Below are positions 18,776-28,304 of a DNA stretch of 64,000 nucleotides, piece by piece (the stretch's first letter is position 1; the number at the start of each line of letters is the position of its first letter). Position numbers and translations under genes: made by a program. The notes beneath the pieces are model-generated. The model was not told where the DNA came from, did not search any database, and saw only the letters and a program-made list of their open reading frames with translations. The DNA comes from an uncultured Solirubrobacterales bacterium (GTDB taxonomy: Bacteria > Actinomycetota > Thermoleophilia > Solirubrobacterales > Solirubrobacteraceae): positions 90,717 to 154,716 of the forward strand of contig CAWFTL010000004.1 of NCBI GenBank assembly GCA_963818815.1, given 5' to 3'.

Positions 18776-18910
18776 TACTGATGCCGCTCGGACCGCCCCG
18801 GCGGCACGCCTTCCTCCCGGCCGGGGTTGCACAGCCTCTTCGGTTGAAACCTGCAGAAAGCCGAACACGCAGGACACTCCGCTGGGCACGGTCTTGCACT
18901 TGTCGCCTGA

Positions 18911-19038
18911 TGCCTGCGGAGTTAGCTGTCGGGCTCGCGCTTGTCTGGCAAGCGCTTCCCACGGATCACCGTGAGACTCGCCCCAATGTGTTGGGTTCCC
19001 CGCTCCCCGGGGCGGCAGTCCGGGGATTCGGCGGGCAG
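18911..19038 (-). ncRNA. c-di-AMP (ydaO/yuaA) riboswitch
   Basis: The minus strand reads GCCGAATCC...GGAGCGGGGAACC...TTGGGGCGAGTC...GAGCCCGACAGCTAACTCCGCAGGC, matching the conserved ydaO segments. It lies upstream of a cell-wall hydrolase-like gene. Confidence 0.92.
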
Positions 19039-19129
19039 GAACGTACCAGAATGATCGGACGCGCGCATGCGCGCGTCCGCCGGGGCGTGCATGCACGCCC
19101 CGGGGACCGGCCGCATGCGGCCGGTCCTA

Positions 19130-19574: not shown

Positions 19575-20999
19575 CTACAGGGACTGGACCTCGGCGGTGA
19601 TCTCGCTCACCGACTGCTTGGCGTCGCCGAACAGCAGGGCGGTCTTCTCGTCGTAGAAGAGCGGGTTGTCGATGCCGGCGAACCCCGAGGCCATGGAGCG
19701 CTTGAGCACGATCACCGAGCCAGAGCGGTCGACCTCCAGGATCGGCATCCCGTAGATCGGGGAGCCGGGCTCGTTCTTGGCCGCCGGGTTGGTGACGTCG
19801 TTGGCTCCGATCACGAGCGTCACGTCGGTGCGGGAGAACTCCGGGTTGATCTCGTCCATCTCCCTGAGCAGGTCGTAGGGCACGTCGGCCTCGGCCAGGA
19901 GCACGTTCATGTGCCCGGGCATCCGGCCCGCAACCGGGTGGATCGCGAACTTGACCTCGACGCCCTTGGCCTCGAGCGCGCGCTCGAGCTCGCGGACGGA
20001 GTGCTGGGCCTGGGCCACGGCCATCCCGTAGCCGGGGGCGATCACGACCTGGCGGGCGTAGGAGAGCTGGATCGCGACGTCCTGGGGGGAGGTCGAGCGC
20101 ACGGTGCCGCCGGCGTCCCCCGTCGCGCTCGGCGCGGCGACCGCGCCCCCAAAGCCGCCGGCCACGATCGCGGGCACCGAGCGGTTCATGGCCTTCGCCA
20201 TCAGGTTGGTGAGGATCGTGCCCGAAGCTCCGACGATCATGCCGGCGACGATCATCGCCGTGTTGTTGAGCGCGATCCCGGTGGCGGCCGCGGACAGGCC
20301 CGTGAACGCGTTCAGCAGCGAGATCACGACCGGCATGTCGGCGCCGCCGATCGGCAGCACGACCATGTTCCCCAGGATCGCCGCCGCGACGAGGATGCCC
20401 AGGATGAACAGCCCCTGCGAATGCGTCCCGGCGGCCAGCACGACCGCGCTCACGACCGAGATCAGCAGCAACGCCAGGTTGATGATCGACTGGCCGGGGA
20501 GCTTGATCGGCCGCCCCGGCAGGATCTCCTGGAGCTTGCCGAACGCGATGTTCGAGCCCCAGAACGAGATCGAGCCCACGATCGCCGCGAACAGCGTGGG
20601 GATCTGGGACTTCTCGACCCACACGCTGCCGCCGCTGGCGAAGTGGTGGCGGTACTCGATCCAGGCGATCACCGCGACGGCGCCGCCGCCCACGCCGTTG
20701 AACAGCGCGACCATCTGGGGCATCGCGGTCATGCGGACGTTGCGGGCCGCCGGGACCCCGACCACGGTGCCGATCACGAGGCCGAGCAGGATCAGCCAGA
20801 CGGTGCTCGACCCGCTGAGGACATGGGGCTGAAGCAGGGTCGAGATGAAGGCGATCACCATGCCGACGGCGGCGATCAGGTTTCCGCGCACCGCCGTGCG
20901 CGGGCCGGTCAGCCCGCTCATGCCGTAGATGAACAGGGCGAAGGCGATGATGTACAGCCCGTCGGTGACGTTCGAGCTGACTGCCGCGAGCGCGATCAC
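19575..20999 (-). CDS. pntB: NAD(P) transhydrogenase subunit beta
   Basis: MTAMPQMVALFNGVGG, IGGADMPVVISLLN, PGYGMAVAQAQ, HPVAGRMPGHMNVLLAEA, GANDVTNPAA. GTG at 20999. Confidence 0.97.
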   Translation of the reverse strand: MIALAAVSSNVTDGLYIIAFALFIYGMSGLTGPRTAVRGNLIAAVGMVIAFISTLLQPHVLSGSSTVWLILLGLVIGTVVGVPAARNVRMTAMPQMVALFNGVGGGAVAVIAWIEYRHHFASGGSVWVEKSQIPTLFAAIVGSISFWGSNIAFGKLQEILPGRPIKLPGQSIINLALLLISVVSAVVLAAGTHSQGLFILGILVAAAILGNMVVLPIGGADMPVVISLLNAFTGLSAAATGIALNNTAMIVAGMIVGASGTILTNLMAKAMNRSVPAIVAGGFGGAVAAPSATGDAGGTVRSTSPQDVAIQLSYARQVVIAPGYGMAVAQAQHSVRELERALEAKGVEVKFAIHPVAGRMPGHMNVLLAEADVPYDLLREMDEINPEFSRTDVTLVIGANDVTNPAAKNEPGSPIYGMPILEVDRSGSVIVLKRSMASGFAGIDNPLFYDEKTALLFGDAKQSVSEITAEVQSL

Positions 21000-21310
21000 G
21001 GTCCCGGCTCCTCGGCTTCCTCGGTCTTCGGCGGGTCCTTGCGTTTGAACATTCCCAGCATGCGGTCGGTGACCAGGAAGCCGCCGATCACGTTGATCGT
21101 CCCGAACGCGATCGCGATCACCAGCAGCGCGTGCTCGAGCACGCCATGGGCCGAGTGCATCAGCAGCAGCCCGCCGAGCAGGACGATGCCGTGGATCGCG
21201 TTGGTGCCCGACATCAGCGGCGTGTGCAGCGTGTTCGGGACCTTCGAGATCACCTCGAAGCCGACGAACGCGGCCAGGACCAGGATCGCGATCTCCGTGA
21301 TAGTGGTCAT
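20996..21310 (-). CDS. pntA: NAD(P) transhydrogenase subunit alpha part 2
   Basis: LHTPLMSGTNAIHG, NVIGGFLVTDRML.MFK. Confidence 0.95.
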   Translation of the reverse strand: MTTITEIAILVLAAFVGFEVISKVPNTLHTPLMSGTNAIHGIVLLGGLLLMHSAHGVLEHALLVIAIAFGTINVIGGFLVTDRMLGMFKRKDPPKTEEAEEPGP

Positions 21311-22437
21311 GCCGGGGCCCCCGCCGCCTGCTTGGCGCCCTCGTGCACGATCTCCCCACCGCGGGTGATGCAGGCGCCGGCGATCACCTCGTCGTCGAAG
21401 TCGAGCGAGAGCTGGCCCTCCTCGGAGATCATCAGCCCCAGCAGCGCCTCGATGTTGCGCGCGTAGAGCTGGGAGGCGTGCTCGGCCATCGTGCTCGGCA
21501 CGTTGAGCGGCGCCAGGATCTTCACGTCGTGGCGGATGACCGACTCGCCGGGCTCGGAGAGCTCGCAGTTGCCGCCCTGCTCACCGGCCAGGTCGACGAT
21601 CACCGAGCCGGGCTTCATCAGCTTGACCGCCTCCTCGGTGACGAGGATCGGCGCGCGCCGGCCCGGCACCAGGGCGGTCGTGATGACCACGTCGACCTTG
21701 CCGATGGCTTCGGCCATCAGCTCCTGCTGGCGCGCCTGCTGCTCGGGCGTGAGCTCCTTGGCGTAGCCGCCCGCGCCCTCGAGGTCCTGACCACCAATTT
21801 CGAACTCCAGGAACTTCGCTCCGAGCGACTCGACCTGCTCCTTGACGGCGGCGCGCACGTCGAAGCCCTGTACCACGGAGCCCAGCCGGCGGGCGGTGGC
21901 AATCGCCTGCAGGCCCGCCACGCCCGCTCCCAGCACGAGCACGGTGGCCGGGCGGATCGTTCCCGCGGCGGTCATCAGCATCGGGTAGAAGCGGCCGAGC
22001 TCCTGGGCGCCGATCAGCGCGGCGCGGTAGCCGGCGATGTTGGCCTGGCTCGAGAGCGCGTCCATCGACTGCGCGCGGCTGATCCGCGGCACGGCCTCGA
22101 GCGCGAAGCTGGTCGCGCCGGTCGCGGCGATGGCGCGGATCCCGTCGCCGTTGGTGAGCGGCTGCAAAAACCCGATGAGGACGGATTCCGAGCCCAGGCG
22201 GCCTACCTCGTCCTGGCCCGGCGGCGCCACCTTGACGATGAGCTCGGCCCCCCATGCGTCGTCGGTCAGCTCGGCCCCGGCCTCCTCGTACTGCTGGTCG
22301 GGGATCAGCGCGCCCGCACCCGCGCCGCGCTGCACCAGGATGCGGTGCTCGCGGCCGGTGAGCTTGCGCACGACTTCGGGGACCAGCGCCACCCGGCGCT
22401 CGCCCTCGACGGTCTCCCTGGGCACTCCGATCTGCAT
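21307..22437 (-). CDS. pntA: NAD(P) transhydrogenase subunit alpha part 1 (dI)
   Basis: IGVPRE...ERRVA, RISRAQSMDALSSQANIAGY, GAGVAGLQAI, TTALVPGRRAP. Confidence 0.96.
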   Translation of the reverse strand: MQIGVPRETVEGERRVALVPEVVRKLTGREHRILVQRGAGAGALIPDQQYEEAGAELTDDAWGAELIVKVAPPGQDEVGRLGSESVLIGFLQPLTNGDGIRAIAATGATSFALEAVPRISRAQSMDALSSQANIAGYRAALIGAQELGRFYPMLMTAAGTIRPATVLVLGAGVAGLQAIATARRLGSVVQGFDVRAAVKEQVESLGAKFLEFEIGGQDLEGAGGYAKELTPEQQARQQELMAEAIGKVDVVITTALVPGRRAPILVTEEAVKLMKPGSVIVDLAGEQGGNCELSEPGESVIRHDVKILAPLNVPSTMAEHASQLYARNIEALLGLMISEEGQLSLDFDDEVIAGACITRGGEIVHEGAKQAAGAPA

Positions 22438-22464: not shown

Positions 22465-24204
22465 TCATGTCAGGCCGACCGGCGCGAAGGCCAGCGCCGC
22501 GGCCACGCCGGCCTCGGAAGCCAGGCCGGATAGGGCGCGGGCGCTGCCCAGTGCAGAGGCAGCCCGCTTTCCGGAGCGAGCGGTCCCGCGGTGAGCGCCG
22601 CCACGGCCCGATCCGCCCCCGCTCCGCGCCCTGGATTGGCGTCGCGACGCCCCGCCCCCCGAGCGCCGCCGGGCGACCGGGGCCAGCGGCAGGGCCTTGC
22701 CGTCCAGGGCCATCTCCGCCTGGGCGGTGACCCACACCGGGGTCTGGTCGCTGGTGCGCGAGTAGCGCACGTGGCCGTCGGGGGCGATAAGCGAATTCAG
22801 GAACTGCAGCGGCGACGGCGCGCCGTGGCGATGAAGGCCGGCGGGGTCGACGCCGGCGGCGATCAGCCCCTGCACCGCCCATGCCGTGGACTGAGCATTG
22901 GACTGCCCGCCGCCCTGGGCGGAAAAGCCGCCGTCGGGGCTCTGCACGCGGCGCAGGTAGCGCACGGCGGCGGTGGCGGCCCGTCCCGCCGCGCCGCCGG
23001 CCCCGGCGAGCGCCTGCAGCGCCGCGCCCGTGTCGTCGACGTCGCTGGCCCCGCCCGCGCGCGCGAAGTTGAAGCCGCCGTCGCGGTCCTGCTGGCGGGC
23101 GATCCAGCTGATCGAGGCTCCCGGGGCTCCGCTCCCGGCCGCGCGGAGCGCGAGCACCGCGAAGGCGGTCCAGTTGACCTGCTCGGCCACCGATCCGTCA
23201 GAGCGGATGTGCTGCTCGAGCATGGCGACGAGGTCACGCCCCCCGAAGCTCCGTGCCGGCGCCCCGGCGGCGCCGGCGACGAGGATCGTGCGCTCGATCG
23301 CGCCCGGGTCGCCGAGCCCGCCGGCCCCCGCGCGTACGTAGGCCAGCAGGTTCTGGCCCCCGCGGCGGACGTCGGCCGGGTTGCGCCCGGCGGCGGCGAG
23401 CCCCAGGGCCGCCCAACCGCTGTAGAGCTGCGAGGACGGGGCGGCCGGCGCGGAGCCAAAGCCGCCGTCGCGGTTCTGGGCGGCGAGCAGGTAGCCGCTC
23501 GGCGTGCCCGCGGCACGTGCGAGTGCAGCCCCGCCTCCCACCACCGGCTGCACGGCCGCCGCCGCGACCACGAGCACGATCAGCGGGACCGCGGCTCCCG
23601 GCACCCATACCACCTGTATGCGCCTGGCGAAGCGCTGGATCGAATGCATCAGCGCCGGGCCGAATGCGAGCGCGAAGGCGACACAGCCGGCCGCGTGAAT
23701 GAAGTCAAAGCCGGTTCCCTTGCCCACGTATACGCCGAGCTGGACCAGGCTGTGGTCGCTGTAGGTGACCCAGTCTCCGACGTCCTGGAGGGCGGCGAAG
23801 GCGAAACCGGCGAGTCCGCAGATCGCCGCCAGCGACCAGCGGCCGAGCCGGCGGCCCGTGAGCACGGCCAGACCGGCGCCGAGCACTCCCGTGGCACCCC
23901 AGGCGGCCATCTGCCACGGCGTCCACGGCCCCTGCCCGAAGAAGAAGTTGGACGTCAGCCCCGCCAGCGCCCCCACCACGAAGCCCGGTGCCCCGCCGAG
24001 CGCATAGCCCGAGATGAGGACGATGTCCGTCGTCGGCTTGACGTTGGGGAGCGCGACGAAGGCGATGCGGCCCAGCGCGGCGAGCGCGGCCAGGGTGGCG
24101 ACGAGCGCGACGATGCGCGCGTCGGGACGGCTGCGCTCGTACCAGGCGAAGCCCGCCGCCAGGGCTACGGCGAGGATCGCCAGCGCGCCGAGCTGCCAGG
24201 TCAA
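22465..24204 (-). CDS. CbrT-like cobalamin ECF S-component fused to an extracellular prenyltransferase-repeat (alpha6/alpha6 barrel, transcobalamin alpha-like) domain
   Basis: TTG at 24204 overlaps the ATPase stop. The N-terminal part has GRIAF..LPNVKPTT and SNFFFGQGPWTPWQ. After an extra TM come repeats QNRDGGF, QDRDGGF, QSPDGGF, plus VDDTGAALQAL and NAQSTAWAVQGL. Confidence 0.85.
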   Translation of the reverse strand: MTWQLGALAILAVALAAGFAWYERSRPDARIVALVATLAALAALGRIAFVALPNVKPTTDIVLISGYALGGAPGFVVGALAGLTSNFFFGQGPWTPWQMAAWGATGVLGAGLAVLTGRRLGRWSLAAICGLAGFAFAALQDVGDWVTYSDHSLVQLGVYVGKGTGFDFIHAAGCVAFALAFGPALMHSIQRFARRIQVVWVPGAAVPLIVLVVAAAAVQPVVGGGAALARAAGTPSGYLLAAQNRDGGFGSAPAAPSSQLYSGWAALGLAAAGRNPADVRRGGQNLLAYVRAGAGGLGDPGAIERTILVAGAAGAPARSFGGRDLVAMLEQHIRSDGSVAEQVNWTAFAVLALRAAGSGAPGASISWIARQQDRDGGFNFARAGGASDVDDTGAALQALAGAGGAAGRAATAAVRYLRRVQSPDGGFSAQGGGQSNAQSTAWAVQGLIAAGVDPAGLHRHGAPSPLQFLNSLIAPDGHVRYSRTSDQTPVWVTAQAEMALDGKALPLAPVARRRSGGGASRRQSRARSGGGSGRGGAHRGTARSGKRAASALGSARALSGLASEAGVAAALAFAPVGLT

Positions 24205-25787
24205 GCGATCGCCTCCAGCGGCCGGGGCCGGCTCAGCAGCGCGACGCCGTCGGCCGGCGTCAGCGCCGCTCCGTTCAGGATCCGCGCCGTCTCGGTGGCG
24301 AAGTAGTCCCCCCCGGCCAGGATCTCCGCCGTGGACCCGTCGGCGATCGGGGCGCCGTCGCCGAGCAGGATGACCCGGTCGGCGAAGGCGGCCGCGAACT
24401 CGGCATCGTGGGTGGCGACGACGACCGCCGGCTCGAGCCCGCGCAGGAGCTCGGCCAACGCGTCCTTGCGGGCCCGGTCCATGCCGCGCGTGGGCTCGTC
24501 GAGGCAAACGACGGCCGGCGCTTCCTTGGCGCCCTCCGGATCGAGCACGATCGCCAGGGCCAGGCGCTGGCGCTCCCCGCCTGAGAGATCGCGGGGGTGG
24601 CGGTCTCCGAACACCACCGGGTCGAGCCCGACGGCAGCCAGCGCGGCCGGCGAGGCCTCCTCGGCCACCGACTCGTGCACGAGGTAGTCGCCGGGGTTCT
24701 GGAGCAGCAGGGCCACGCGGCCCGCGGAGGCCACTCGTCCTCGGGTGGGCGCCAGCAGCCCGGCGGCGTGACGGAGCAGGGTCGACTTCCCGGCCCCGTT
24801 TCGCCCCATGAGCGCCACCCGCTCACCGGGTGCGACCGAGAGGCGCACATCGCGCAGGATGGCCGCGCCGCCGCGGAGCTCGTGCCAAACGCCTGAGAAG
24901 CGCAGGGCGGCGGAGCGCTCCGCCGCGCGCGAGATGGCGGGAGCGGGAGCGGAGGGCAGTTCGACACCGGCATCGCGCAGCGCCGTCCTGGCCGCCCTGA
25001 CGCCGGCCACGGGAGCCAGCCCGAGGCCGCTGAGCAGCCGCGCCCCGGGCGTGCACAGCGTGGGCGCCTGGGCCGCGGCCCACTCCAGGAACTGCGACGG
25101 CGGGCCATCGCAGACGATCCGGCCCGCCGCGAGGGCGATCACGCGGTCGGCGAAGCTCAGGCAGCGCTCGAGGCGATGCTCGGCCAGCAGGAGCGCGATC
25201 TCGGCATCGTCGTGCAGGCGCCGCAATGTGGCCAGCAGCTCCTCACCGGCCACCGGATCGAGCTGGGCGGTCGGCTCGTCGAGGACGAGGAGCTGCGGAC
25301 GCGCGGCCAGGGCGGCGGCGAGCGCCACGCGCTGCAGCTCGCCCCCCGAGAGCTCGGAGGTCGGGCGCTCGAGCAGGTGGGCGACGCCGAGCGAGAGCGC
25401 AGCCTCCTCGACCGCGCGCGCGATCGCCGGCGGGCTGGCACCGTGATTCTCGAGTGCGAAAGCGATCTCGGCCCGCACCGTCGCCATCACGACCTGCGTC
25501 TCGGGGTCCTGCAGGAGCGTCCCCACCGCGGCCGAGAGCTCGCCTGGACGGTGCTCGCGCGTGTCGAGCCCGGCGACGATCGCGCGGCCGGCGAACTCGC
25601 CGCCGTGGAAGTGCGGCACGAGTCCGCTGGCCAGGGCGAGCAGGGTCGATTTGCCCGAGCCCGAGGAACCCGTCACGACCACGAGCTCCCCAGGCGAGAT
25701 CGCCAGCGAGACGTCGCGCAGCGATGGCCCGGGGGCGCCGGGGTACGTGTAGGTGACGTCCTGCAACTCGAGGACGGACCCGCTCAT
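24201..25787 (-). CDS. ECF transporter double ATPase (EcfA-A' fusion, CbrU-like)
   Basis: Two ABC cassettes: GSSGSGKST/LSGGELQR/LDEPT and GRNGAGKST/LSGGERQR/LDEPTRG. QDPETQ Q-helix. Confidence 0.93.
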   Translation of the reverse strand: MSGSVLELQDVTYTYPGAPGPSLRDVSLAISPGELVVVTGSSGSGKSTLLALASGLVPHFHGGEFAGRAIVAGLDTREHRPGELSAAVGTLLQDPETQVVMATVRAEIAFALENHGASPPAIARAVEEAALSLGVAHLLERPTSELSGGELQRVALAAALAARPQLLVLDEPTAQLDPVAGEELLATLRRLHDDAEIALLLAEHRLERCLSFADRVIALAAGRIVCDGPPSQFLEWAAAQAPTLCTPGARLLSGLGLAPVAGVRAARTALRDAGVELPSAPAPAISRAAERSAALRFSGVWHELRGGAAILRDVRLSVAPGERVALMGRNGAGKSTLLRHAAGLLAPTRGRVASAGRVALLLQNPGDYLVHESVAEEASPAALAAVGLDPVVFGDRHPRDLSGGERQRLALAIVLDPEGAKEAPAVVCLDEPTRGMDRARKDALAELLRGLEPAVVVATHDAEFAAAFADRVILLGDGAPIADGSTAEILAGGDYFATETARILNGAALTPADGVALLSRPRPLEAIA

Positions 25788-26647
25788 CGGCCGATCCCCC
25801 GGCGGTCGGCGAACGGCATCAAGGCGACGGCGATCACCGCGAGGGCGATCAGCAGCTGGCCGGTGCCGAGCGGCATGTGCAGCGAGGGGTAGGCGCTGAA
25901 CGCGACCAGCCCCGCGACGCGGCCGCCGACCGCCAGGACGAGGATCGCGGCTGCCGCGGCGGCGAAGGCGAGGTCGTGGCGCGAGCGCGGACGGCGCACG
26001 GCGGCCGGCCTGCTGGCTCCGGCATATCCACGTACTTCGAGCGCGGCGGCGACATCGAGGGCGCGGTCGAGCGCGCCGGCGGTGGTCGCGCGCATCAGGG
26101 CAAAGCGAGACGGCGAGCGGCCGGCGCGGCAGCGCTGCGCCTCCGCCAGGCGGCGCGAGTCGCGGATCAGCACGGGGACCAGCCGTGTGGCGAGCGTCGC
26201 CGTCAGCGCCGAGTGAAAGGACACGCGGCGCAGCAGGCGCAACACCTCATCGGGGTCGACGGCGGCCGAGTAGAGGGCGCCGCAGAGCACGAGGATGAGC
26301 GCGCGTAGGCCCAGCACCGCCCCGTAGACACTCGCCTCGAGCGTGATGTCGGTGTGCCCGAGCACGGGCAGATCCCCGAGGCGGAGAATCACCGTGAGCC
26401 CGTCGCGCGTCACGAGGGCGTTGATCAGGGCGATCAGCAGCGCCAGCGGCAAGGCGAGGAGGAGCGCGCGAGCGAGCACGCTCCGCAGCCCTGCGGCGAC
26501 GAAGGCACCGGCGACGGCGAGGCAGACCGCCGCCAGGACGACGGGACTGGAGAGCACCAGGGCGGCGATGGCCAGCGCCAGGCAGTAGCCGATCCCCGCC
26601 GCGGCCCGCGCCGAGTGAAGGGGGCTGGCTCGGCGACGGTAGATCAC
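25784..26647 (-). CDS. ECF transporter T component (EcfT/CbrV-like)
   Basis: TM segments, then LATRLVPVL, AQRCRA and ALEVRGY (Arg-containing coupling helices). Confidence 0.9.
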   Translation of the reverse strand: MIYRRRASPLHSARAAAGIGYCLALAIAALVLSSPVVLAAVCLAVAGAFVAAGLRSVLARALLLALPLALLIALINALVTRDGLTVILRLGDLPVLGHTDITLEASVYGAVLGLRALILVLCGALYSAAVDPDEVLRLLRRVSFHSALTATLATRLVPVLIRDSRRLAEAQRCRAGRSPSRFALMRATTAGALDRALDVAAALEVRGYAGASRPAAVRRPRSRHDLAFAAAAAAILVLAVGGRVAGLVAFSAYPSLHMPLGTGQLLIALAVIAVALMPFADRRGIGR

Positions 26648-27567
26648 GATCCCGCTCTCAGGGGGAGCGGGATGACTCCATGCCCGTCGACCGCGACCGC
26701 GAAGTGGTCACGCAGGTCGGCCTGGTTGAACGCGGCGGCCGCCCTGGCGACGCCGGTGGCGTCGGTCCCGGTGATGAGCCACGTCGGCGTCGGCGTCTGA
26801 TAGGCCGTGGCGGCGATCAGCCCCGCGCCGGGACCGAGCGTGCGCACCACGTGCCCAGCCGGGTCGAGCAGCTGAAGTGCGGCGCCGGCGGACGCGAACT
26901 TGGCATAGACCCCGCTGGCCGACGGCCCGACCGCGATCAAACCGGCGATCAGCTGCGGGCGCAGCTCTTGCCAGGTGCCGACGTCGACGGTCAGCGTGTC
27001 GCTCCCGGAGCCCGTGCCCAGCAACTGGCTGGCCGCCGGCACGCCGACCGCATGGAGGGCCGCCGCGGCGCGCCGGCAGGCGAGGCCGGCATCAGGCCCG
27101 CAGGCGAGCGAGGTGGGAAAGCGCTTGCCGCCGGTGCCGTGGACGAAGGGCTCGGGGAACGCTCCGACGACGGCCGGCACGGAGTTGGTGGCGGTCCAGT
27201 CGTGCAGGTCCCACCAGATGTGGTCTCCGCGGTGCACAGCGGTCGTGGCCGCCCCCTGGGGCGCCTCCACGCCGTTGACGTAGTAGAACCAGTCGAGCCG
27301 GCTGCCCGAGCCCCCGAGGCCGTTGATCGACTGCACGAAACCGCCCCCGTAGCGGGTGTTCACGCGGAAGGACCGCTCGAGCATCCGCATCACAGTCTCG
27401 GAGCCCGGCACCTTCGACCGGCTGACCTGCGCGATCCGCTTCTGCCCAAACGAGCGCGTGACGGTCACGCTCACGTTCGAGGTGCCCTGGCCCGGACCCA
27501 GCCCGCACCCGGCGAGGATCGCGGCCGCGGTGGCCACGGTCCCCGCCAGTAGGGCCCGGCTGCGCAT
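26644..27567 (-). CDS. DUF4430 (transcobalamin beta-domain-like) lipoprotein, CbrS-like
   Basis: ATG 27567, lipobox LAGC, GGFVQSING...DWFYYVNG...GA....HRGDHIWWD, plus an additional C-terminal domain. Confidence 0.85.
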   Translation of the reverse strand: MRSRALLAGTVATAAAILAGCGLGPGQGTSNVSVTVTRSFGQKRIAQVSRSKVPGSETVMRMLERSFRVNTRYGGGFVQSINGLGGSGSRLDWFYYVNGVEAPQGAATTAVHRGDHIWWDLHDWTATNSVPAVVGAFPEPFVHGTGGKRFPTSLACGPDAGLACRRAAAALHAVGVPAASQLLGTGSGSDTLTVDVGTWQELRPQLIAGLIAVGPSASGVYAKFASAGAALQLLDPAGHVVRTLGPGAGLIAATAYQTPTPTWLITGTDATGVARAAAAFNQADLRDHFAVAVDGHGVIPLPLRAGS

Positions 27568-27569
27568 CG

Positions 27570-28259
27570 TCAGGACGAGACGCGCACGCGCACCGTCGCC
27601 GCCCGGATGTAGCCGTTCGCGCGCGCATGCAGGATCAGCGAGCCTTGATGACCGGCGGTGAACGTCGCGACGCCCTTGCCGTTCGTGTGCGAGCCCTGGG
27701 TGCCGCCGGCGACGTTCGCGTACACCGTCGCCCCGGACACGGGCTTGGCTTTGCCCGCGGCGGAGTAGGCCGCGACCTTGACCTGGAACGGCTTGCCCGC
27801 GGTGGCGGCCGAGGGCGCGCTCAGCACAAGTGGGAACTGCTTGCCGTTCGTGACCGCGAACAGAAGCTGCTCGCCCGCGTGCAGCTTCATGTCGCACACG
27901 CCCGCGCTCGCCGAGCGGTTGTTCACGAACACCGTCCAGTAGTCGTTCCCGCTCGCCTTCTCACCCAGGATCGAGGTGATGAAGATGCCGGGCACGCTGG
28001 CGTACCACTTGCCCGTCCAGCGATGGTGGGTCGCCGCGTCGAGCGCGCCGGCGGCGCTCGATCCGGAGCATTTGCCACGAGGCGCACCGCCCTTCGTGAC
28101 CCAGCCCTTGGCGCCGGCCGTCTTGGTCGGGGCCAGCAGCGTGCGACTGAGCCCTTCCACGCGCACGGTGACCTGGCTTCGGTTGCCGGCGCTGGCCGCC
28201 GGTACCGCAACCACACCGGCGAGCACTCCGAGAAGCGCGATGGAGATTCTTCGATTCAA
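27570..28259 (-). CDS. Secreted DUF4430-like protein with C-terminal Ig-like domain
   Basis: Likely TTG start 28259 after AAAGGGG. Signal peptide ending ASA, GIFITSILGEKASGNDYWTVFVNN...GVCDMKLHAGEQLLF, and a beta-rich C-terminus. Confidence 0.8.
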   Translation of the reverse strand: MNRRISIALLGVLAGVVAVPAASAGNRSQVTVRVEGLSRTLLAPTKTAGAKGWVTKGGAPRGKCSGSSAAGALDAATHHRWTGKWYASVPGIFITSILGEKASGNDYWTVFVNNRSASAGVCDMKLHAGEQLLFAVTNGKQFPLVLSAPSAATAGKPFQVKVAAYSAAGKAKPVSGATVYANVAGGTQGSHTNGKGVATFTAGHQGSLILHARANGYIRAATVRVRVSS

Positions 28260-28304
28260 CAGGGCCACCCCTTTCCGCGAGGGCGTATCGGCGTTGCGGT
28301 CGCA

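Follow-up and report, generated by a model that had tools for sequence, protein, structure and literature searches.

The window analyzed here, a stretch of 64,000 nucleotides from an uncultured Solirubrobacterales bacterium (contig CAWFTL010000004.1), contains a gene that encodes the substrate-specific subunit (S-component) of an energy-coupling factor (ECF) transporter fused to a large alpha/alpha toroid. This gene, referred to below as S-toroid (22465-24204, (-)), is the last gene of a five-gene operon headed by a cobalamin riboswitch. Taken as a whole, our results are best explained if S-toroid is, as we consider probable, the fused substrate-specific subunit of a vitamin B12/corrinoid importer whose tethered surface toroid helps to capture the substrate. 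The strongest functional clues are the cobalamin riboswitch, two DUF4430 genes, and the kinship with predicted transcobalamin-like systems, none of which had been used in the earlier note on this DNA.

S-toroid joins a CbrT-like S-component and a toroid in one reading frame

The gene is an uninterrupted open reading frame of 579 amino acids that starts with a TTG codon overlapping the TGA stop of the upstream ATPase gene (junction GCTTGACC). The earlier note had described a single frame encoding a CbrT-like S-component with an extra transmembrane helix (TM), a further hydrophobic segment, a domain with QxxDGGF repeats, an Arg/Gly-rich linker, and a hydrophobic tail. The reading frame, a match to the PDB chain 6fnp_A, and an AlphaFold2 model all bear out this description. 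The model, built from an alignment of 142 sequences, reached a mean predicted local distance difference test score (pLDDT) of 84.9, compared with 39.6 for an uninformative single-sequence run. Values were mostly >95 in the toroid, 68-96 in blocks of the S-component, ~44-57 over residues 201-231, and 42-55 in the linker.

The extra N-terminal helix, TM0 (residues 4-22; 24139-24195, (-)), was modeled as a helix of residues 3-25. It is followed by the CbrT-like core (residues 29-200; 23605-24120, (-)), with six helices predicted between residues 29 and 195 and RFARRIQVVW as its last residues. Residues 30-195 (166 residues) align with the 182-residue membrane chain of ECF-CbrT (6fnp_A, E = 2e-12). 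The Pfam ECF_trnsprt match of the fusion is weak by itself (E = 0.08), and PF12822 is precomputed in four close orthologues. Sequence, six-helix fold, and the neighboring EcfT and EcfA/A' genes together identify the N-terminal part as a CbrT-like ECF S-component. The S-components that stand alone in sister orders and in Clostridiales have alignments starting at query residue ~3-10 and therefore share the TM0 region, indicating that TM0 is a trait of the S-component subfamily that is independent of the fusion. A Clostridiales metagenome-assembled genome encodes a lone S-component of the same subfamily (L078:5072-5788, (+)), which carries the motif SNFFFGQGPWTPWQM and two extra N-terminal hydrophobic segments, with neither an ECF module nor a toroid nearby.

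Downstream of the core lies TM7 with its spacer, a hydrophobic segment (residues 201-231; 23512-23604, (-); VPGAAVPLIVLVVAAAAVQPVVGGGAALARA) that ends in ARA and is followed by AGTPSGYL. The toroid of 280 residues (residues 232-511; 22672-23511, (-)) is defined by Pfam, PDB, and Foldseek matches and by QxxDGGF repeats, three at residues 243, 372, and 421 and two degenerate ones at 336 and 476. A basic low-complexity linker (residues 512-560; 22525-22671, (-)), with 12 Lys/Arg and no Asp/Glu over residues 513-556, connects the toroid to a hydrophobic C-terminal tail of 19 residues (residues 561-579; 22468-22524, (-); LASEAGVAAALAFAPVGLT). The tail was modeled as part of a helix spanning residues 549-576, with block-mean pLDDT values of ~60-78 and 58 over the final nine residues.

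The fusion is conserved across the order

A database search limited to 8,000 candidates returned >7,700 protein clusters that match the fusion. Among the matches listed, 120 of 120 were 571-624 residues long, with 87-100% query coverage and 62-74% identity. We also scanned one genome per species and found 593 loci with a relative of the query, the best 80 of which were examined further. About 70 of these best 80 align from residue 1 to past residue 495, and nearly all of the 80 are labeled Solirubrobacterales, Solirubrobacteraceae, Conexibacteraceae, or Thermoleophilaceae. Of the 20 genomes that represented the window's own order in a balanced sample of the class, 19 had a match; it ran continuously across both halves in 16 of them, and the remaining three comprised one frame-shifted copy (genome G045) and two partial matches. 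On these numbers, the fusion is a genuine gene of the whole order, conserved far beyond chance.

The frame-shifted copy comes from the same genus (L110; G045:C1:293600-295800). Here, the gene is broken within the toroid, with query residues 1-276 in frame 1 and residues 283-578 in frame 3, which reflects either a sequencing error or a decaying copy.

The earlier note had also raised the question of whether orthologues are fused or split. They are not consistently two genes, being fused in the window's own order and split in its sister orders.

The fusion arose by a frame change between overlapping genes

In other orders of the same class, the query gave two adjacent matches, one for the S-component (query ~5-205) and one for the toroid (query ~205-510). 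Nineteen such split loci were fetched, and 17 contained both genes. In all 17, the S-component and the toroid are encoded in different frames, the S stop codon is TGA, and the toroid start overlaps or abuts it. The overlap is a 4-nucleotide ATGA/GTGA in 13 loci and a single nucleotide in 1, and in the other 3 the toroid starts 10 nucleotides before the end of the stop codon. The split S proteins terminate in RRLRTEVVWT, equivalent to RFARRIQVVW at residue 200 of the fusion, and the split toroid proteins start with short Sec signal peptides, such as MRTLAVLAAAVALGG, MKTIALVITLAALLAAAPAAQA, and MIRALLIAAAIAIAPGAHA. The different frames and overlapping stop and start codons show that the fusion arose by a frame change at the junction. 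Because the split toroids begin with a Sec signal, the internal signal peptide of the fusion is the former signal peptide of the downstream gene. Together, these comparisons show the conservation of the fusion and its origin by a frame change at an overlapping ATGA stop/start.

The nearest split toroids are secreted, anchor-less proteins of 261-291 residues. A second type of split toroid (L108, L109, L115, L116, and L120) is >420 residues long and has a beta-rich, Ig-like C-terminal extension. The more distant S-only matches L075, L078, and L079 have no toroid, suggesting that the toroid is an optional add-on to a DUF4430-ECF core.

The operon is part of the B12 regulon

The operon is arranged in the order cobalamin riboswitch, DUF4430, DUF4430 lipoprotein, EcfT, fused EcfAA', and S-toroid. 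DUF4430 is a beta-grasp (SLBB) domain that makes up the C-terminal half of transcobalamin. The riboswitch aptamer at the head of the operon (RF00174; 28308-28432, (-)) scored 83.9 bits (E = 3.3e-19). The first gene (27570-28268, (-)) encodes a secreted DUF4430/SLBB protein of 232 residues with an Ig-like C-terminal domain (PF14478, E = 4.6e-8). Read from the sequence, its N terminus (MALLNRRISIALLGVLAGVVAVPAASA) is Sec-signal-like, and its residues 69-135 match the beta domain of bovine transcobalamin (2bb6_A, E = 0.0034). The second gene (26644-27567, (-)) encodes a DUF4430/SLBB lipoprotein of 307 residues with the lipobox LAGC (PF14478, E = 6.2e-14; MRSRALLAGTVATAAAILAGCG), and its ATG at 27567 lies two bases past the stop of the preceding gene. 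The ~180 C-terminal residues of this lipoprotein (26644-27200, (-)) were matched by no Pfam or NCBIfam model; they are conserved in orthologous operons (tblastn, residues 30-317 of the query piece). The third gene (25784-26647, (-)) encodes EcfT, the transmembrane coupling component of the CbiQ family (PF02361, E = 2.7e-15), and overlaps the preceding gene by GTGA. The fourth (24201-25787, (-)) overlaps its predecessor by ATGA and encodes a fused EcfA-EcfA' double ATPase of 528 residues, with two ABC_tran domains (E = 4.8e-45) and matches to ECF_ATPase models at E values of 1e-80 to 5e-82. The genes of the operon are translationally coupled, with three 4-nucleotide overlaps and one 2-nucleotide gap at their junctions.

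The same riboswitch was found at the head of the orthologous operon in all 7 further loci (4 divergent fused and 3 split), which also have the gene order riboswitch-DUF4430-DUF4430 lipoprotein-T-AA'-S-toroid in common. Among 8 loci with a toroid-T-AA'-S arrangement in other families of Actinomycetota, 4 likewise have a cobalamin riboswitch ahead of the operon. Our data show that the operon belongs to the B12 regulon.

Neither CbiC nor CobS was found in the bacterium's own genome (95% complete, 3.15 Mb), although B12-binding domains occur in three of its proteins, encoded by open frames of 146, 700, and 1,203 residues. This combination fits an organism that depends on cobalamin import and appears to use B12 without being able to make it. 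The riboswitch and the B12-auxotroph-like gene content thus point to cobalamin as the likely substrate of the S-component.

The toroid faces the outside

Both termini of S-components are cytoplasmic. The loops after the N-terminal helix (ERSRPDAR) and after helix 6 (RFARRIQ) are basic, and one further helix then places the toroid outside. At 8 loci from other Actinomycetota families, split toroids combine a Sec signal with SLH domains, an LAFTG sortase motif, or a C-terminal TM ending in RRR. Together, the descended Sec signal, the basic loops, and the surface-anchored split toroids show the toroid to be extracytoplasmic, in agreement with the earlier note and not with a cytoplasmic location.

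A single polypeptide encoded at another locus (L097:6053-7612, (-); G023:C54) contains a Sec signal, a toroid, a Cys-rich region, and a C-terminal TM ending in RRRR. The Cys-rich region is DUF4430/SLBB-like by eye, and Pfam made no call for it. The gene is located downstream of a cobalamin riboswitch and upstream of T-AA'-S, and its product looks like a full-length membrane-anchored bacterial "transcobalamin."

The tail, with the consensus LAxDAGxLTALALAPVGLG-COOH, is present in 123 of 137 fused orthologues and is better conserved than TM7. In these 123 proteins, the linker has a median length of 58 residues with 11 Lys/Arg and 1 Asp/Glu. A TM with a basic end replaces the tail in 3 of the 137, and the deep-branching L053 and L073 have a standard TM with an RR end. 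Another 7 have no C-terminal anchor and end right after the toroid. The proposal of the earlier note that the domain is anchored at both ends thus applies to some members of the clade and not to others. Linker and tail might position the toroid above the binding site of the S-component.

We rejected the tail as a general sorting signal. Seventeen open frames of at least 80 residues in the genome have last residues matching AP[VLI]G; they comprise the fusion itself, three that end in the unrelated RAPIGG, and others without protein-like composition, leaving the fusion's own frame as the only one in the genome with an APVG-type tail motif. Nothing that we tested explained the basic, acid-free stretch followed by a barely membrane-length helix (22468-22671, (-)).

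The segment between the two halves descends from a signal peptide

As the earlier note had recognized, the hydrophobic segment ahead of the toroid is signal-peptide-like; in sister orders, where the toroid has a gene of its own, the homologous stretch is the N-terminal Sec signal of that gene's product. It consists of a basic n-region (RFARRIQVVW), a hydrophobic core with a median of 16 residues, and a small-x-small motif in ~95% (~130 of 137) of the fused orthologues. The median core length in split signal peptides is 12 residues. From the terminal Trp of the S-component to the first toroid helix, fused proteins have 37 residues, compared with 23.5 for the whole split signal peptide plus spacer. 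The distance between the hydrophobic core and the small-x-small (AxA) motif ranges from a few to >25 residues among fused orthologues. The AxA moves with the N terminus of the toroid (AxA-A-x-T-P-x-x-Y-L) and thus may be part of the domain, a reading that the variable distance suits no less than a signal peptidase site, and the small-x-small scan discriminates poorly because the sequences are rich in Ala, Gly, and Ser. Given the lengthened core and the widely varying position of the motif, cleavage at the AxA site, which the earlier note had considered plausible, is not established.

The toroid is related to terpene cyclases and prenyltransferases

The toroid matched the Pfam family PF00432 (Prenyltrans, E = 2e-7) as well as SQHop_cyclase domains, and a search of its profile against the PDB found squalene-hopene cyclase at 3e-35. 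Against the NCBIfam model SCO2321_fam (NF053823), it obtained an E value of 1.3e-24 and 86.9 bits, which is under the 300-bit family cut-off. The best Foldseek matches were class II terpene cyclases and prenyltransferase beta subunits, with which it shares an alpha/alpha toroid with QW-type (QxxDGGF) repeats. The alpha domain of transcobalamin (PF01122) gave no Pfam match at E ≤ 0.01; transcobalamin, intrinsic factor, and haptocorrin were absent from the PDB matches of the toroid profile at E ≤ 10; and transcobalamin was not among the 50 Foldseek matches listed. Because no relationship to the alpha domain was found, "split transcobalamin" is kept here as a functional analogy only, and transcobalamin-type membership is supported by sequence only in the case of the DUF4430 (beta) half.

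Residues 388-391 are an invariant DVDD throughout the fused clade, which resembles the DxDD of class II cyclases. At this position, split orthologues of the same operon have DSND, DSNT, SIDS, or EVDM. The motif is therefore not conserved in the split orthologues, and we rejected DVDD as a terpene-cyclase active site. This variability and the location of the toroid outside the cell make an enzymatic role unlikely.

Relationship to known systems

Burroughs et al. 2007 (PMC1796856) predicted that bacterial transcobalamin-like SLBB proteins scavenge B12 and described them as frequently fused with, or encoded alongside, an alpha/alpha toroid and CbiO/CbiQ in hosts without B12 synthesis. With two DUF4430 genes, a toroid, CbiQ, and ABC ATPases in one operon, the present operon is, judged by its gene content, a member of this class. 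The predicted function, B12 scavenging at the cell surface, and the parts (an ECF module, an S-component, one or two secreted DUF4430 proteins, and a prenyltransferase-like toroid) are the same, but there the toroid is either secreted as a protein of its own or fused to SLBB, whereas here it is fused to the S-component. The genes Lsa1836-1840 of L. sakei form an ECF operon with alpha-like and beta-like transcobalamin proteins that a preprint links to heme uptake (bioRxiv 10.1101/864751). Unlike that assignment, control by a cobalamin riboswitch points to corrinoids in the present case. The accessible parts of these two sources do not describe an S-component-toroid fusion, and a literature search found no S-component fused to an outside domain and nothing relevant on a riboswitch with a prenyltransferase and an ECF transporter. 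The covalent S-toroid fusion thus appears to be undescribed so far, and the accessory system is known from prediction and one partial experimental study.

ECF-CbrT of Lactobacillus delbrueckii is an ECF-type vitamin B12 transporter (PDB entry 6FNP; Santos et al. 2018, PMC5997447). It has in common with the present system the six-helix S-component core, the EcfT and EcfA/A' partners, and cobalamin as the substrate, which is a prediction in our case. CbrT is a stand-alone protein of ~20 kDa that works with a shared (group II) ECF module and without accessory proteins, whereas S-toroid carries an additional TM at its N terminus, has its own module with fused AA' under riboswitch control, and is joined to a 30-kDa outside domain.

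In Streptomyces-like genomes, proteins of the SCO2321 family (NF053823) contain a homologous toroid with a Sec signal and a C-terminal TM anchor and are encoded beside EcfT, AA', and S genes. Unlike the fusion described here, they are separate genes upstream of the ECF module. True members of the family were found only in one genus of large genomes, and a riboswitch was not detected at the one SCO2321-type locus examined.

Eukaryotic transcobalamin, intrinsic factor, and haptocorrin sandwich B12 between an alpha6/alpha6 toroid and a beta-grasp (DUF4430) domain. The same fold classes occur here, but the halves are on different polypeptides, one of them attached to the transporter, and the toroid has no sequence match to the alpha domain. 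OpuA and GlnPQ are type I ABC importers with a substrate-binding domain fused to the permease. Although they belong to a different transporter class from ECF, they likewise hold a capture domain at the transporter through a signal-anchor-type TM, with a higher local concentration and a fixed stoichiometry. ECF transporters, in contrast, are defined as working without extracytoplasmic binding proteins.

A model for the S-toroid importer and its alternatives

In the model that we propose, a cobalamin riboswitch controls a dedicated (group I) importer of the ECF type for vitamin B12/corrinoids, and S-toroid is its substrate-specific subunit. In Solirubrobacterales, a CbrT-like S gene has merged with the downstream gene of a secreted toroid via a frame change at the ATGA junction. 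The old signal peptide of the toroid would have become an eighth membrane helix (TM7), carrying the chain from the cytoplasmic C terminus of the S-component outward, so that the ~30-kDa toroid would be displayed on the outer face, on a flexible spacer beside the transporter. Most likely, the toroid and the two DUF4430 (transcobalamin-beta-like) proteins would capture scarce corrinoid and hand it over to the S-component. The toroid would then play the part of the alpha domain in a "split transcobalamin," analogous to the permease-fused binding domains of some ABC importers. We infer B12 binding by the toroid and its cooperation with the DUF4430 proteins. S-components are thought to topple (rotate) in the membrane, and we see about an even chance that the whole order uses an ECF transporter in which a toppling S-component is covalently tethered to an extracytoplasmic ligand-capture domain.

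Several points weigh against this model. Under the positive-inside rule, segments as strongly basic as the linker are unusual on the outer face. The AxA-type motif in front of the toroid in nearly all fused orthologues makes cleavage by signal peptidase possible, and the hydrophobic C-terminal tail of most members makes most sense if the N-terminal link is cut. The nearest relatives of the toroid are terpene cyclases and prenyltransferase beta subunits, and its putative role as an alpha-domain counterpart rests on fold class and gene context. Finally, the related L. sakei system was reported to take up heme (bioRxiv 10.1101/864751).

The first of these points to consider is cleavage. Here, the gene would be fused and the protein processed by type I signal peptidase, with the cut following ARA (residue 231) and giving an S-component with one extra helix and a toroid that is held by its own tail or, in tail-less members, released. 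The fusion would be a near-neutral result of a frameshift in the ATGA overlap that guarantees 1:1 synthesis. We regard this as somewhat unlikely, although it is the best of the alternatives. It agrees with the ancestry of the segment as a Sec signal peptide and with the small-x-small motif that follows it in ~130 of 137 orthologues. The secreted, anchor-less toroid of the sister orders (261-291 residues) suggests that a free toroid was the ancestral working state, and the tail in 123 of 137 members, or the TM with a basic end in 3, would be redundant if the N-terminal tether stayed. Cutting would also remove any conflict with the toppling of the S-component. However, a distance between core and AxA as variable as this, up to >25 residues, is not typical of signal peptidase sites, split signal peptides have a shorter hydrophobic core, and fused lineages without a tail persist. 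To our knowledge, signal peptidase rarely acts at internal sites of polytopic bacterial proteins, and binding-domain/permease chimeras of classical ABC importers, such as OpuA, are not cleaved. On balance, we favor a permanent tether, with the segment predicted to stay uncleaved.

A non-corrinoid role of the toroid, whether for another tetrapyrrole such as heme, in envelope anchoring or remodeling, or as a cyclase/prenyltransferase-like enzyme, is improbable. Its nearest sequence and structure relatives are enzymes, its DVDD is invariant and DxDD-like in the fused clade, and the homologous L. sakei operon has been tied to heme uptake. On the other hand, DVDD is replaced in split orthologues of the same operon, and the domain lies outside the cell, remote from pools of isoprenoid diphosphates. 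Moreover, control by a cobalamin riboswitch is kept across fused and split loci in several families, and the toroid steadily co-occurs with DUF4430, which is homologous to the B12-contacting beta domain of transcobalamin. There is a negligible chance that errors of assembly or sequencing created the fusion, or that it is a pseudogene in this genome. The two-frame copy of a congener (G045) is evidence that frame errors or decay happen, but an uninterrupted frame recurs across hundreds of independent assemblies, in which the best aligned segment is 44-77% identical and the junction is conserved, and this refutes the artefact reading.

If the tethered-importer model is correct, ECF transporters, the textbook binding-protein-independent importers, could work with a built-in binding domain, and toppling would tolerate or exploit two extra flanking TM helices and a 30-kDa load on the outside. 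The same riboswitch-controlled B12 operon exists in nature as matched pairs, with the S-component and the toroid fused in one order and encoded by separate, coupled genes in sister orders. These matched operons would provide a clean system for testing whether accessory surface proteins feed ECF transporters, and the fusion would be a direct test of the mechanical load borne by S-component toppling. The gene pair would also document how a frame change in an ATGA overlap turns a signal peptide into a transmembrane tether, and it points to the way in which abundant soil Actinomycetota that are unable to make B12 compete for it.

Neighboring features

Past the B12 operon, 27 nucleotides after its stop and on the same strand, lie pntA (AlaDH/PNT domains), a small pntA-like membrane piece, and pntB-like genes (19575-22437, (-)). 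A c-di-AMP (ydaO-type) riboswitch scoring 63.2 bits is located at 18895-19043 (-), and the open reading frame downstream of it has a peptidoglycan-binding-like region and an M23/LytM-like end.

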